Shown piece after piece: positions 20,970-31,215 of a stretch of 64,000 nucleotides of DNA; position 1 is the first letter of the stretch, and every line of letters starts with the position of its first letter. The position numbers were made by a program, and so were the translations under genes. The stretch is from assembly GCA_947632405.1 (NCBI GenBank), contig CANRPE010000001.1, positions 42,095-106,094 of the forward strand, in the 5' to 3' direction. This stretch comes from an uncultured Bacilli bacterium. GTDB lineage: Bacteria; Bacillota_I; Bacilli_A; RF39; UBA660. A model generated the notes under the pieces. The model searched no databases, was not told the DNA's origin, and was given only the letters and a program-made list of their open reading frames with translations.

Positions 20970-20990
20970 AAATAAACCAATTTCTATTTT
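20957..20990 (+). terminator. rho-independent terminator after rsmG
   Basis: A 10-bp stem AAATAGAAAT/ATTTCTATTT with loop AAACCA, followed by a T-run. Confidence 0.6.
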
Positions 20991-21059
20991 TTATTTGAAT
21001 AAAATTATATTTAATGATATTCTAATACTAGGATAATAAAAAAGAATGGAGAAATAAAA

Positions 21060-21326
21060 GTGAATAATGAAAAATACTTACCTTTAGGAACAATAGTAAT
21101 GTTAAATGGAGGTAAAAAAAGAGTAATGATTACGGGATATTGTTGTAAAACAAAAACAAGTGAACAAATTTATGATTATACAGGTTGTTTATATCCAGAA
21201 GGATATATTTCTTCAGATAAAATGTTAGTATTTAATCATCAAGATATAGAAAAAATAGATAGTTTTGGTTATATTGATGAGGAATTTAATAATTTTAAAA
21301 ATCTATTAAATAAATTAAATCAATAA
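21060..21326 (+). CDS. DUF4176-like small protein, paralogue 1
   Basis: 88 aa. The N-terminal EKYLPLGTIVMLNGGKKRVMITGY matches the LPLGSVV..L..G..K.MI.G signature I associate with DUF4176 (type VII locus associated). It is 45-50% identical to the next ORF. GTG start. Confidence 0.55.
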   Translation: MNNEKYLPLGTIVMLNGGKKRVMITGYCCKTKTSEQIYDYTGCLYPEGYISSDKMLVFNHQDIEKIDSFGYIDEEFNNFKNLLNKLNQ

Positions 21327-21345
21327 AAAGGATGTGATTTTCATT

Positions 21346-21624
21346 ATGGAATATGAAAAATATTTACCTTTAGGAACAATCTTAAAATTAAAAAATCAAG
21401 AAAAAAAAATAATGGTTACAGGTTTTATGGCTATGCCAAAAAATCAAAATAATATAATTTATGATTATACAGGTTGTTTATATCCAGAAGGATTTTTATT
21501 TCCTAATAATATGCTTTTATTTAATCACCAAGATATAGAAAAAATAGAGCATATGGGATATTCAGATAATGAAGAAAAAGGATTTAAGGAAGTTTTAAAA
21601 ACAATTGATCAAGAAAATAAATAG
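21346..21624 (+). CDS. DUF4176-like small protein, paralogue 2
   Basis: MEYEKYLPLGTILKLKNQEKKIMVTGF...YDYTGCLYPEG...LFNHQDIEKI is shared with paralogue 1. The ATG at 21346 is preferred over the track's GTG at 21334. Confidence 0.55.
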   Translation: MEYEKYLPLGTILKLKNQEKKIMVTGFMAMPKNQNNIIYDYTGCLYPEGFLFPNNMLLFNHQDIEKIEHMGYSDNEEKGFKEVLKTIDQENK

Positions 21625-21636
21625 AGGGTGAACGAA

Positions 21637-24180
21637 ATGGCAGATATACGTGGAATTAATTCAAAAGTATCTTCAAATATTTCATTGAATTATAAAGTAA
21701 ATAATTCACCAAATATGAATATTGATAAAGTTCAGAACAAAGCAACTACTTCAAATCAAAAAGTAGAAACTACAAAAGTTGATTTGTCATTAAAACCAAA
21801 AAGAAGTATAGGTCAAAATGCAGCAACATTTGGTATAGGAATAACAGAAGGTATGCTTGGAGTTGGAGAAAAAGTAAGAGATTTTGTTGAAATGAATGGA
21901 GTTAAACTTTTTGGAAAAGCAGATGTAGGTTTACAAAAAGCTAAAAATGGAATTAAAAGTTTATTAGGTTTATTAACACAGCAAGATAAAAATGATTTAA
22001 AAGTAAAAGAAAAAGTTTATGAGGAAATGATGGAAGAAACAGCTGCACATGTAGCAACTGATGAAGTAAAAAGTGTATTATATGATCCTTTATATCAAGA
22101 TTTAGGTTTAATAGAAGAACAAGAACAAACACCTCTTTCAAGATCTTTAGGTAATGGAGTAGGTGAAACTTTTGAAATTTTAGGATTGGCATTAACAGGA
22201 GGTTATGTAGTATCTGGTTACTCTACAGCAGCTGCTGCTGAAATGGGAACTCAAGAGGCACTAGCAACATTAAATCAAGCAACTTCAACAAAAGTTTTAA
22301 GACCTTTTCTAGCAGGAATAACAGGAGCAGGTGAAGGATTACAAACAGCATATCAAGAAGGTGCTGATGTTAATAAAGGATTAAAATATAGTTATTTAAA
22401 AGGAACTTTTAATTCAGCACAATGGCTAATTGGAGAAGGTATTAATCAGTTTACACCATTTCAAAATTCCACAAAAAATAGTTCATTACATGTAGTCTTA
22501 GATTCAATAGATGGTGGAGCAGAAGGTATTGTTCAACCTTGGTTAAAAACAATATATGATGATAGAAATTATTCGACTTTATTTAAAGAAAATGGTGGAT
22601 GGACAAATGTTGGAGTACAAGCTTTGATAGCAGGAACACTTTCAACAACTTCAGAAATTTTTAGTAATAGAAGTAATTTATATCAACAAAAAAATAATCA
22701 ACAACCAAATACCGAGATAAATTCACAAAAAATAAAAGATAATGTAATATCAATAGAAGATTATAAAAATAATAAAATACAGGCTCAAGAAGAATTAAAT
22801 AATGTAATATCAATAGATGAACTAAGAAGTAAAAAACAAAATTTAGCAGTAAACTCAAACACTAAGCCAGAAGGCGTAAAAACAGAGGTTATAGAATTTC
22901 CAAATCCTGATAAGCAACCAGTTGAAATGAATAAACAAGTAGTAAATGGAGATTATTTTGTAGATAATCAGACTCCAATAACAGAAATAAATTCTTCTTC
23001 AACTACTGATAATAATGTTGTATCTTTTTATAGAAATCAATCTCAACAGCAATCATATCATCCTCAACAACAAGTAGGTTCTATCAATAATTTAAATAAA
23101 ACAATAAATAATAGTTATTCAAATCTTTTTGATACTAATGGAAAATTAAATTATTCTACAGCTACTAAAATTTTGCAATCAAAAGGTTTTTCAGATGATG
23201 ATATTATTGATATATATAATAAAACGAAAACAAGTGATTTAGTAGCATTATTAAAAAGTAATCAAAATATCAATGATATTAATCCATCAATGCCTAAAGT
23301 TAAATTATTTCAAAATTCAACACAAATGTTATCAAGTATACCAGATCCAATTAGAAATTATAAACTTTTGGATAAAATTACAAAAAAAATTATTGAAGCA
23401 ACTGAAACAGGTCAAAGTGCATATGGAGTCGTTACTAATTTAAATAGTGTATCTAAAAAATTGCCTTCTAAGCAAATATGTGATAATTATTGGAACACAG
23501 TATTTAACTCTGGAGCTAATATAAAAAGACAGTTCAGTCAAAATGGCAAGACATGTTTTAAAGATATTAGTAAAATTGAATTTGATCAATTACAAACAAA
23601 TGATTTTATTCATATTCAAAAAGGAAAATATATTGGAGGAGAAAAATTATATTTAAATATTGATATAGATAATGCCTATAAAATTTTACCTATGTTTATG
23701 AAAGAATGTGATAATCAAAATTTAGGATATTATTTTAAAGTTGCTAAATATAGTGGAAATGTATATAACATAGGACAATTTACAAGAGATGAAGCTATTG
23801 TCTTTTATTCTAACAATGAAAATACTTATAAGTATGTTAATATTTTAGAAAATATTTTAAGTAACAATCCAGATATTCCTATTTATGAGCCTCCTGCACT
23901 TGCAGGTGTAATTAATAATAAAATAGGTTTTGGAACTGATCCACCTACATCTGATATAATTCAAGTAGATGGCAGAACAATTAAATTAGAAAGATCATAT
24001 AATGGGCGCAGAGGACAATTAGTTAGTGATGCTTTCATGAATACTTTATCAAAATATGATGATATTACAAAATTATCACCACAAAAATATCAAGAATTTA
24101 TCCAAAATTTTTATAAAGAGATAAAAAGATTATCACCTATATATAAAATTAATCCAAATAATTTTATGTATAATAACTAA
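21637..24180 (+). CDS. large modular protein (about 847 aa), candidate T7SS-associated effector with no recognisable TM segments
   Basis: N-terminal Gly/Ala-rich helical region; a central Q/N-rich low-complexity region with a short tandem repeat (NVISIEDYKNNK / NVISIDELRSKK); and a C-terminal globular domain of about 300 aa (YYFKVAKYSGNVYNIGQFTRDEAIVFY...) that I cannot assign. The ATG at 21637 follows an AGAGGG Shine-Dalgarno. Confidence 0.5.
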   Translation: MADIRGINSKVSSNISLNYKVNNSPNMNIDKVQNKATTSNQKVETTKVDLSLKPKRSIGQNAATFGIGITEGMLGVGEKVRDFVEMNGVKLFGKADVGLQKAKNGIKSLLGLLTQQDKNDLKVKEKVYEEMMEETAAHVATDEVKSVLYDPLYQDLGLIEEQEQTPLSRSLGNGVGETFEILGLALTGGYVVSGYSTAAAAEMGTQEALATLNQATSTKVLRPFLAGITGAGEGLQTAYQEGADVNKGLKYSYLKGTFNSAQWLIGEGINQFTPFQNSTKNSSLHVVLDSIDGGAEGIVQPWLKTIYDDRNYSTLFKENGGWTNVGVQALIAGTLSTTSEIFSNRSNLYQQKNNQQPNTEINSQKIKDNVISIEDYKNNKIQAQEELNNVISIDELRSKKQNLAVNSNTKPEGVKTEVIEFPNPDKQPVEMNKQVVNGDYFVDNQTPITEINSSSTTDNNVVSFYRNQSQQQSYHPQQQVGSINNLNKTINNSYSNLFDTNGKLNYSTATKILQSKGFSDDDIIDIYNKTKTSDLVALLKSNQNINDINPSMPKVKLFQNSTQMLSSIPDPIRNYKLLDKITKKIIEATETGQSAYGVVTNLNSVSKKLPSKQICDNYWNTVFNSGANIKRQFSQNGKTCFKDISKIEFDQLQTNDFIHIQKGKYIGGEKLYLNIDIDNAYKILPMFMKECDNQNLGYYFKVAKYSGNVYNIGQFTRDEAIVFYSNNENTYKYVNILENILSNNPDIPIYEPPALAGVINNKIGFGTDPPTSDIIQVDGRTIKLERSYNGRRGQLVSDAFMNTLSKYDDITKLSPQKYQEFIQNFYKEIKRLSPIYKINPNNFMYNN

Positions 24181-30557: not shown

Positions 30558-30565
30558 GTGGTAAT

Positions 30566-30868
30566 ATGGATGAGAATATTATTTATATTGAGAATTTGAA
30601 TCAAGAAAAAAATAAAATTAAAATGTATGTAGAAGAAGAAACTTCAAAACTATTAGAATTATCTTCTTTGTATTCAAAAATAAATGCATCGTTAAAAATA
30701 AAAAATAGTGAAGAATTAGAAAATAAGCAACTTGAATTATATCAAAAAATAAATATCATGAATAAAAATCATGAAAATAATATAAATGTTTTAGTAAAAA
30801 ATATTCAAAAATATAAAGAAACTGCCTTTAGTGCTAAAGTTACATTAGATAATATTAAAAATGGGTGA
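30566..30868 (+). CDS. small helical protein (100 aa), WXG100-sized
   Basis: A coiled-coil-like composition of about 100 aa, within the T7SS-like gene cluster. Confidence 0.45.
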   Translation: MDENIIYIENLNQEKNKIKMYVEEETSKLLELSSLYSKINASLKIKNSEELENKQLELYQKINIMNKNHENNINVLVKNIQKYKETAFSAKVTLDNIKNG

Positions 30869-31106
30869 AATTATGGAAAATAGTTTAAAATATGGTATCT
30901 TAAAAAGACAACTTCAAAAAATAAAATTTAGTTTAAATGAATTAAATAAAGATTATGAAAATATTGAAAATTTACTAAAGAAAAGTATTATTATAGATAA
31001 TAATATTATTGAAAAAGAAAATTTATCTAATATTAAAAATAATACAGATTATGTAATAAATAACTTAGAAACTAGTATTTTACCAAATATAAATAAAAAT
31101 CTTTAA
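30861..31106 (+). CDS. small helical protein (81 aa)
   Basis: Overlaps the previous ORF by 8 nt, consistent with translational coupling. Confidence 0.4.
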   Translation: MGEIMENSLKYGILKRQLQKIKFSLNELNKDYENIENLLKKSIIIDNNIIEKENLSNIKNNTDYVINNLETSILPNINKNL

Positions 31107-31111
31107 TATTG

Positions 31112-31140
31112 AAATTCTTATTTTAAGAATTTTTTATTTG
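31112..31140 (+). terminator. rho-independent terminator closing the island
   Basis: Stem AATTCTTA/TAAGAATT followed by TTTTTTATTT. Confidence 0.55.
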
Positions 31141-31215
31141 CTTATTTTCAAACAAGTAAAAACATGTTATAATATAAAATAGAATAAAAGAGTAAAAAGT
31201 GAGGTATCAAATATT

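Follow-up and report, generated by a model that had tools for sequence, protein, structure and literature searches.

The stretch analysed here, referred to throughout as the window, is a 64,000-nucleotide segment of contig CANRPE010000001.1 (assembly GCA_947632405.1) that spans the surroundings of the replication origin in an uncultured host of the class Bacilli with a very low GC content (~24%). An identical sequence is found in contig NODE_17 (118.9 kb) of ENA assembly ERZ27249285. Between rsmG and a gene for a Noc-like ParB protein, the window carries an island of nine open reading frames (ORFs), all on the + strand, which we interpret as a compact type VII secretion system (T7SS). According to this interpretation, to which we assign a probability of roughly 65%, the ATPase EssC and a ubiquitin-like protein (UBL91) make up the translocon and motor, the helical protein p218 is the equivalent of EsxA, three further helical proteins (p186, p100, and p81) form a bundle, and the large protein p850 is exported. 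The locus is composed of two modules, a conserved six-gene machine cassette (24244-31106; essC, UBL, p218, p186, p100, and p81) and a chaperone-toxin cargo module (21060-24180). An earlier note on this DNA, made from the sequence alone, had read the island as a reduced or divergent module for secretion or effector delivery, and the evidence presented below supports that reading.

The EssC cassette and its conservation

At the sequence level, the assignment of ORF 24244-28833 as EssC is certain. The predicted protein scored 963 bits against TIGR03928 (NCBIfam equivalog cutoff of 778 bits) versus 57 bits against the FtsK model, matched FtsK_SpoIIIE (PF01580, Pfam) with an E value of 9.5e-32, and aligned with Bacillus subtilis YukB (9qks) with an E value of 1.9e-123. 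The N-terminus is FHA-like, the FHA match itself being sub-threshold (E 0.0045). A hydrophobic helix was predicted at residues 263-281, and a second, weaker stretch was read by eye at approximately residues 300-320. In a motif scan only ATPase domain D1 carried a canonical Walker A (GMTGSGKS, 711) and Walker B (828), and no recognisable Walker A motif was present in D2 and D3 (residues ~1000-1529). This single-P-loop pattern was found in 116 of the 118 members of the EssC clade and fits the published finding that translocation needs only the Walker motifs of D1 (PMC13355648).

EssC was also the only island ORF with a predicted transmembrane or hydrophobic helix. Hidden Markov models (HMMs) of EssB/YukC, EsaA/YueB, and EssA (Pfam, NCBIfam) returned no match at E<=1 in any island ORF, and T7SS membrane genes were absent from the ~80 kb around the locus (the 64-kb window plus ~16 kb of flanks).

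The EssC clade comprises at least 118 full-length clusters (53-66% identity), assigned to metagenome-assembled genomes (MAGs) of 'Bacilli bacterium' where named, a breadth that argues for selection and not decay. In six long contigs from this clade (L008-L013) the BLAST-confirmed gene order was always essC, UBL (~90 aa), g1, g2, g3, and g4, the last four corresponding to p218, p186, p100, and p81 of the window. The flanks of these six contigs all differed (recA/ftsY/sortase; prfB/ftsEX; ychF/rpsF; cysS/pyrG; a class-I aminoacyl-tRNA synthetase; mutM/secDF). The cassette was conserved in 9-12 related loci sampled from the EssC clade and partly so in three species-representative genomes (L001-L003) and in two further loci (L014, L015), distant (32-40% identity) and likewise compact, that were retrieved by a metagenome scan with EssC. 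Neither Pfam matches to YukC, EssA, or EsaA nor a shared transmembrane protein accompanied the cassette in 11 loci (the window, L001-L003, L008-L013, and L015). One of the species-representative loci, L002 (CAZRJK010000001.1), is labelled 'uncultured Muribaculaceae' (Bacteroidota); given its 25% GC and its Bacilli-type EssC cassette despite that label, the contig has probably been mis-binned or mislabelled.

In every related locus the UBL gene directly follows essC, and its orthologues are annotated as 'hypothetical protein' by the Prokaryotic Genome Annotation Pipeline. The AlphaFold2 model of UBL91, with 11 orthologues in the alignment, reached a predicted local distance difference test (pLDDT) value of 93.8 and follows a beta-beta-alpha-beta...beta order. 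Foldseek placed it with ubiquitin (template modelling score ~0.7, probability 1.0), and the ubiquitin-like domain of mycobacterial EccD5 (7np7_D2) ranked fourth. The protein does not end in Gly-Gly. UBL91 had no Pfam match, the YukD family (PF08817) was not reached (E 0.16 in one UBL orthologue and E 0.0018 in that of L015), and a profile search against PDB sequences retrieved nothing meaningful. By position UBL91 is the equivalent of EsaB/YukD/TsxB, with a ubiquitin fold that is predicted from the model. In L009 the 86-aa UBL clusters (90% identity) under a 1528-aa EssC representative (P0217, cluster 3), possible causes being a clustering artefact or, in some assemblies, gene calls in which essC and the UBL gene are fused or read through.

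Judged by their sequence conservation, the four small helical proteins are part of the conserved core and not accessories. The model of p218 (pLDDT 85) contains helices at residues 9-45, 49-91, 127-156, and 166-204, with turns W46-x-C48 (W-A-C in the window) and C158-G-F that are invariant across the family alignment. Orthologues were present in 8 loci; homologues measure 209-214 aa, and g1 of L008-L013 measures 214-253 aa. The match of p218 to WXG100 (PF06013) was sub-threshold (E 0.008), relatives matched EspC with an E value of 1.7e-4, and no island ORF reached the PF06013 or TIGR03930 cutoffs for WXG100 proteins. In hhalign comparisons the N-terminal half aligned in register with Staphylococcus aureus EsxA, tryptophan on tryptophan, at a weak E value of 0.011, and a profile search against PDB sequences gave nothing meaningful. 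A Y-x-x-x-[D/E] motif lies near the C-terminus in 7 of 10 family members; a bipartite signal that combines WxG with PhixxxD has been described (PMC13355648). From its modelled fold, p218 is a candidate single-chain equivalent of EsxA/TsxA, that is, a priming substrate. The promoter-like site and strong ribosome-binding site ahead of p218, together with the hairpins on either side, make high expression of this gene probable. Each hairpin turn of the p218 family holds one invariant cysteine (C48 in W-x-C and C158 in C-G-F), which suggests a disulfide or metal site joining both turns.

Downstream of p218, p186 is WXG/LXG-like and free of any toxin domain. Its turn reads W40-S-D42 in the window, and both W40 and D42 are invariant in the family. 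Orthologues were found in 8 loci, and WXG100 was matched below threshold in 3/8 family members (best 0.0047); hhalign comparisons of p186 with EsxA and of the p186 and p218 profiles were not significant. Orthologues of p100 were identified among the genes of L010, L008, L013, and L011 and in the C-terminal halves of the fused g2 of L009 and L012. The g2-g3 (p186-p100) fusions in L009, L012, and L002 argue that p186 and p100 act together physically. Orthologues of p81 occur in L010, L011, and L002, with a link through L008 and L009 to L012. Together, p186, p100, and p81 would form a toxin-less helical bundle of LXG-like/Lap-like type, serving as a core substrate or adaptor.

These results bear out what the earlier note had described for this part of the island. 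Its EssC/YukB-type FHA-FtsK ATPase was recovered, with the FHA portion sub-threshold, as was its EsaB/YukD-like beta-grasp protein, now modelled with a ubiquitin fold. The four helical proteins are present, and in both of the glycine-less WXG-like turns pointed out there (W-A-C and W-S-D) the tryptophan proved invariant. Its statement that EssB, EsaA, and EssA are missing from the locus agrees with the HMM scans and with EssC as the sole predicted transmembrane protein.

Cargo module and island layout

The cargo module begins with two DUF4176 genes (a and b), whose identities are certain from their sequences. Protein a is 53% identical to b and 49-50% identical to the DUF4176 protein of L010, and the a/b region carries tandem-duplication repeats (labelled D1 and D3 in the repeat search). 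The DUF4176 family comprises the Ltc chaperones of T7SSb toxins (PMC12478183). By analogy, a and b would be small Ltc-type toxin chaperones with p850 as their partner.

No Pfam or NCBIfam family matched p850. Its order is a low-complexity segment of ~60 aa, a previously undescribed Gly-rich domain of ~290 aa (~60-350), a linker rich in N/Q/K, and a HopA1-like C-domain (~556-849). A word-indexed search with full p850 returned only p850, low-complexity words dominating the result; exhaustive HMMER yielded 492 homologues, in which the N- and C-domains matched independently. The N-domain, for which no Pfam or PDB relative was found, recurs in hundreds of proteins, 500-2000 aa long, with varied C-termini, including ADP-ribosyltransferase (8/50), transglutaminase-like (4/50), and HopA1 (1/50) domains. 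LXG (PF04740) was absent from p850 and from 50 N-domain relatives at E<=1e-3, and some N-domain relatives start with a WXG-type domain (W-I-G at ~51). Among C-domain relatives, 19/30 matched HopA1 (PF17914; best E 2.4e-15), p850 itself remaining sub-threshold (E 0.049). The C-domain also ends multi-toxin proteins of 1700-2400 aa and occurs in small proteins. On this sequence evidence p850 is a polymorphic effector, cargo rather than a machine part. An identity as EsaA or EssB, raised in the earlier note as an outcome that would turn the locus into a standard system, was rejected, there being no transmembrane helix, no family match in the HMM scans, and halves that recombine with toxin domains. 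Furthermore, in L010 a DUF4176 gene is followed by a 700-aa protein with the p850 N-domain (28% identity, E 3e-17), and this pair lies between the UBL gene and g1, unlike in the window. The different site indicates that the chaperone-toxin pair is a mobile cargo module.

Several side observations concern the cargo. Many N-domain toxins open with an M-S-G/D-V-x-K-I-x-I/V-S-like motif (P0018, P0024, P0029, P0034, P0040, and others), followed by low-complexity sequence or, in others, a longer helical domain; p850 (21628-21800) begins MADIRGINSKVSS. Going by sequence, this N-terminal motif of p850-type toxins may be a conserved recognition element. Giant putative toxins (1201 aa, 2062 aa, and a fragment of at least 2900 aa from a 3116-aa gene) adjoin the cassette in L009 (1-9939), L011 (16885-23545), and L012 (17344-20949) and share shuffled modules with the p850 relatives P0015-P0017. 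An ADP-ribosyltransferase domain is present in one of them; behind it come a gene for a 96-aa protein with weak similarity to DUF4176 and one for an ADP-ribosylglycohydrolase, the latter a likely immunity gene. In L001, from a rabbit-gut MAG, two tandem paralogous modules adjoin the cassette (2774-8967, - strand), each encoding proteins of 199 aa, 76 aa (DUF1292), and 700 or 771 aa, the largest with weak lipase/alpha-beta-hydrolase matches. These modules may represent another type of cargo, namely lipase toxins with helper proteins.

The island lies within the gene order dnaA, rnpA, yidC, jag, mnmE, mnmG, rsmG, island, Noc-like ParB, soj, and spo0J (Table 1). Hairpin z-scores were calculated from folding energy versus shuffled sequence. 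From their sequence, the two inner hairpins likely divide the island into three predicted transcription units: (1) DUF4176 x2-p850-essC-UBL, (2) p218 alone, and (3) p186-p100-p81. The GC content of the island (0.21-0.30) is about equal to that of its surroundings, and the ORF list and a repeat search revealed no flanking direct repeats, integrase, transposase, or recombinase at the island. A mobile-element origin of the insertion was rejected on these grounds.

The earlier note had placed the ORFs at the rsmG-noc junction with correct coordinates, all on the + strand, and had bounded them with hairpins, both of which fold better than shuffled sequence (z -3.5 and -3.3) and are followed by a U run. 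Its two DUF4176-like paralogues and its soluble, modular 850-aa protein were likewise recovered. The ~10.2-kb insertion that it had described stands as an island between rsmG and noc; synteny of the related loci indicates that it is not a one-off, relatives holding the cassette and cargo elsewhere.

Table 1. Positions of the island genes, flanking genes, and nucleic acid signals, numbered from the first nucleotide of the window.
Feature	Position	Strand or side	Description
rsmG	20331-20969	left flank	GidB Pfam match
Left boundary hairpin, AU-rich, after rsmG	20963-20990	+	11-bp stem, -8.6 kcal/mol, z -3.49, U-run next
DUF4176 protein a, 88 aa	21060-21326	+	PF13780, E 1.8e-27
DUF4176 protein b, 96 aa	21334-21624	+	PF13780, E 3e-25; public call from 21346, 92 aa
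p850	21628-24180	+	850 aa, soluble, no transmembrane helix
essC	24244-28833	+	TIGR03928, FtsK_SpoIIIE, and YukB matches; public gene call from 24259, 1524 aa
UBL91, ubiquitin-like beta-grasp	28817-29092	+	overlaps essC stop; public call from 28826, 88 aa
Terminator-like hairpin and U-run after UBL gene	29116-29140	+	-10.1 kcal/mol, z -4.3
Promoter-like site before p218 (TTGAAA, 18 nt, TG-TATGAT)	29174-29203	+	consensus match only
Strong ribosome-binding site before p218, AGGAGGAGG	~29243-29251	+	read from sequence
p218 (g1), 218 aa	29259-29915	+	two helix-turn-helix hairpins in tandem, one chain (predicted)
20-bp perfect hairpin after p218	29932-29975	+	-21.5 kcal/mol, z -8.0
p186 (g2)	29997-30557	+	helical; invariant W40-x-D42, often then G
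p100 (g3)	30566-30868	+	small helical; candidate Lap-like partner of p186
p81 (g4)	30861-31106	+	small helical; second candidate partner
Right boundary hairpin before noc-like gene	31111-31133	+	-5.9 kcal/mol, z -3.3, U-run next
Noc-like ParB	31216-32598	right flank	TIGR04285, 295.6 bits, just below cutoff 315

Further features were noted in the surroundings. The Noc-like ParB is 460 aa long, with a normal ParB N-terminal and helix-turn-helix core at residues 1-225 followed by an acidic, low-complexity C-terminal extension of ~235 aa. The host carries peptidoglycan genes (PBP1, MurA, and MreB) and sporulation genes (SpoIIR, BofA, and SpoVT). A ComK-family competence regulator (10735-11190, - strand), also present in L016 (225-680), is a neighbour of recF and gyrB near the origin; the genes for BofA and SpoVT are situated further to the left on the contig. 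An agr-like quorum-sensing locus (61275-63987) runs past the window end and comprises a LytTR regulator (61275-62033) and a histidine kinase (62014-63303), with a 40-aa AgrD-like ORF (~63344-63466) and AgrB (from 63517) on the opposite strand.

Proposed mechanism and alternative explanations

In the proposed mechanism EssC would hexamerise in the membrane, and its single intact ATPase domain, D1, would drive export. The ubiquitin-like protein would dock on EssC and stabilise its assembly, in the manner of YukD with YukB and of the ubiquitin-like domain of EccD with EccC. The helical proteins would carry or assemble WxG-type turn signals recognised by EssC. Within p850, the Gly-rich N-domain would be the trafficking and chaperone-binding part and the HopA1-like C-domain the payload. 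Since p850 lacks an LXG domain of its own, it would probably be recruited via the DUF4176 chaperones and/or the free-standing p186-p100-p81 complex. Gene identities, the modelled folds of UBL91 and p218, the recurrence of the cassette, the p186-p100 fusion, and the domain shuffling of p850 are results of the analysis; the protein-protein contacts, export itself, and the lack of any additional membrane subunit are inferred. That the cassette amounts to a complete, autonomous T7SS, with the EssC hexamer as its sole membrane component, is a tentative suggestion. Similarly doubtful is the combination of EssC as sole membrane component with a 'split' targeting scheme, in which LXG-less toxins dock together with DUF4176 chaperones on a p186-p100-p81 adaptor.

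A number of observations weigh against a compact, functional system. The comparison of the UBL with EsaB/YukD by hhalign was weak and not significant, and all WXG100/YukD assignments of the small proteins fell below Pfam thresholds. Foldseek of the p218 model against the PDB retrieved generic four-helix bundles (ferritin, Dps), and in the p218 copy of the window the Y-x-x-x-[D/E] motif is missing its acidic residue. No immunity gene adjoins the 3' end of p850. The data derive from MAGs. Furthermore, both the FHA-like N-terminus of EssC and the UBL have been kept. Their B. subtilis counterparts contact or recruit the pseudokinase YukC (PMC12637312, PMC11217815), so the presence of both hints that a YukC-like partner may persist. 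EssB-, EsaA-, or EssA-like proteins may be encoded outside the ~80 kb inspected.

This last point is central to an alternative that we regard as serious and yet unlikely, in which the locus is an ordinary T7SSb split across the genome, with EssB, EsaA, EssA, or their analogues encoded elsewhere, so that the cassette is not minimal. Only ~80 kb of the genome are in view, EssC scores as a T7SSb equivalog, and both the FHA-like region, the EssB-binding part of EssC in T7SSb (PMC11217815), and the UBL, whose B. subtilis counterpart bridges YukB and YukC (PMC12637312), are kept. However, accessory genes cluster with essC in all described layouts of T7SSb and T7SSc-j (PMC11217815), and the 11 loci listed above are housekeeping-flanked and never have a membrane gene in common. 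A decaying T7SS remnant that no longer secretes is highly improbable. The missing canonical partners, the degenerate P-loops of D2 and D3, and the p218 of the window, without the acidic residue of the export motif, would be expected of such a remnant, but all ORFs are intact, the same single-P-loop pattern is found across the EssC clade, the six-gene order is kept across divergent genomes with fresh toxin cargo adjoining it, and degenerate D2/D3 Walker motifs are compatible with function (PMC13355648). It is scarcely credible that the EssC-like ATPase serves DNA transfer or a sporulation-related translocation with the helical proteins as unrelated neighbours: FtsK/SpoIIIE ATPases do move DNA and the host carries SpoIIR, BofA, and SpoVT, but the sequence match points specifically to EssC/EccC, relaxase and conjugation genes are absent from the vicinity, and in many loci the cassette is linked to a UBL, WXG-like proteins, DUF4176 chaperones, and polymorphic toxins.

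The compact-system interpretation has several implications. Provided that EssC is its sole membrane component, the system of this gut lineage, which is cell-walled and spore-forming, would be the smallest T7SS in nature. Because the same cassette recurs in many related genomes without the membrane parts that usually go with it, it may be the T7SS machine in its simplest natural form. Questions in the T7SSb field include the roles of EssB, EsaA, EssA, and YukD and whether the EssC/EccC hexamer is the channel; a natural system of EssC, UBL, and helical substrates would be a candidate for six-gene reconstitution and a natural test of dispensability. Items that are currently unannotated include a 'pre-dimerised' single-chain EsxA-like family, a large, undescribed delivery domain common to hundreds of toxins, and HopA1-like payloads in polymorphic toxins of Gram-positive bacteria. 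Gut metagenomes contain the host lineage in abundance, and the cassette is widespread in uncultured gut Bacilli. If functional, effectors of the ADP-ribosyltransferase, transglutaminase, and HopA1 types could target neighbouring bacteria or the host.

Comparison with known systems

The literature searched contained no description of this arrangement or of a minimal, Mollicutes, or Erysipelotrichales T7SS, and nothing on HopA1 as a polymorphic toxin. The cargo module resembles LXG/Lap/Ltc modules (PMC12478183, PMC13355648) in having DUF4176 directly upstream of a large modular toxin, a toxin region common to differing C-terminal payloads, and small helical proteins in the locus; the DUF4176 proteins of the window belong to the 'small' class. 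In contrast to those modules, p850 has no LXG domain, no adjoining Lap genes, and no immunity gene after it, and p186 with its two partners is free-standing, toxin-less, and kept within the machine cassette. The C-domain of p850 belongs to a homologous set of which 19 of 30 members match the HopA1 family (PF17914), typified by a type III effector of Pseudomonas syringae, whereas here it is part of a Gram-positive, T7SS-linked polymorphic toxin and is itself sub-threshold.

With the T7SSb of S. aureus (Ess) and B. subtilis (Yuk), the locus shares a TIGR03928-type EssC with an FHA-like N-terminus and probably two transmembrane helices, an adjacent small ubiquitin-like gene, candidate WXG-like helical substrates, and DUF4176 chaperones with polymorphic toxins as cargo. 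It differs in that EssB/YukC, EsaA/YueB, and EssA/YueC are absent in and near the locus, a predicted 218-aa tandem hairpin with W-x-C would replace the ~100-aa WXG100 protein EsxA, the core includes the toxin-less p186-p100-p81 trio, and EssC has a single canonical P-loop. The layout is unlike that of either T7SSb, as had been proposed earlier, in its other extra genes as well as in the absence of membrane genes from the locus.

The T7SSc-j types share an ATPase, usually a ubiquitin-like protein, a WXG100 protein, and type-specific extras (Garrett, Higginson, and Palmer 2024, PMC11217815). The cassette follows the same TsxA/TsxB/TsxC core logic with lineage-specific extras and substrates beside small helical partners. 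In contrast to those types, neither the island ORFs nor the cassette neighbours in L008-L013 include a TsxD kinase, TsxF PPM phosphatase, Ig-like TsxI, DUF6382-FHA TsxJ, DUF5050 propeller TsgL, EspG-like chaperone, or AAA+ TsfV. The EssC of T7SSg, described as 'relatively simple' (PMC11217815), has no FHA domains, whereas that of the cassette has an FHA-like N-terminus. Compared by gene content, the cassette matches none of the published T7SSb-j layouts and has fewer components than T7SSg, the simplest published type. From its sequences and models it would fit the broad definition of a T7SS (TsxA/TsxB/TsxC), with TsxA represented only by a WXG-like tandem hairpin.

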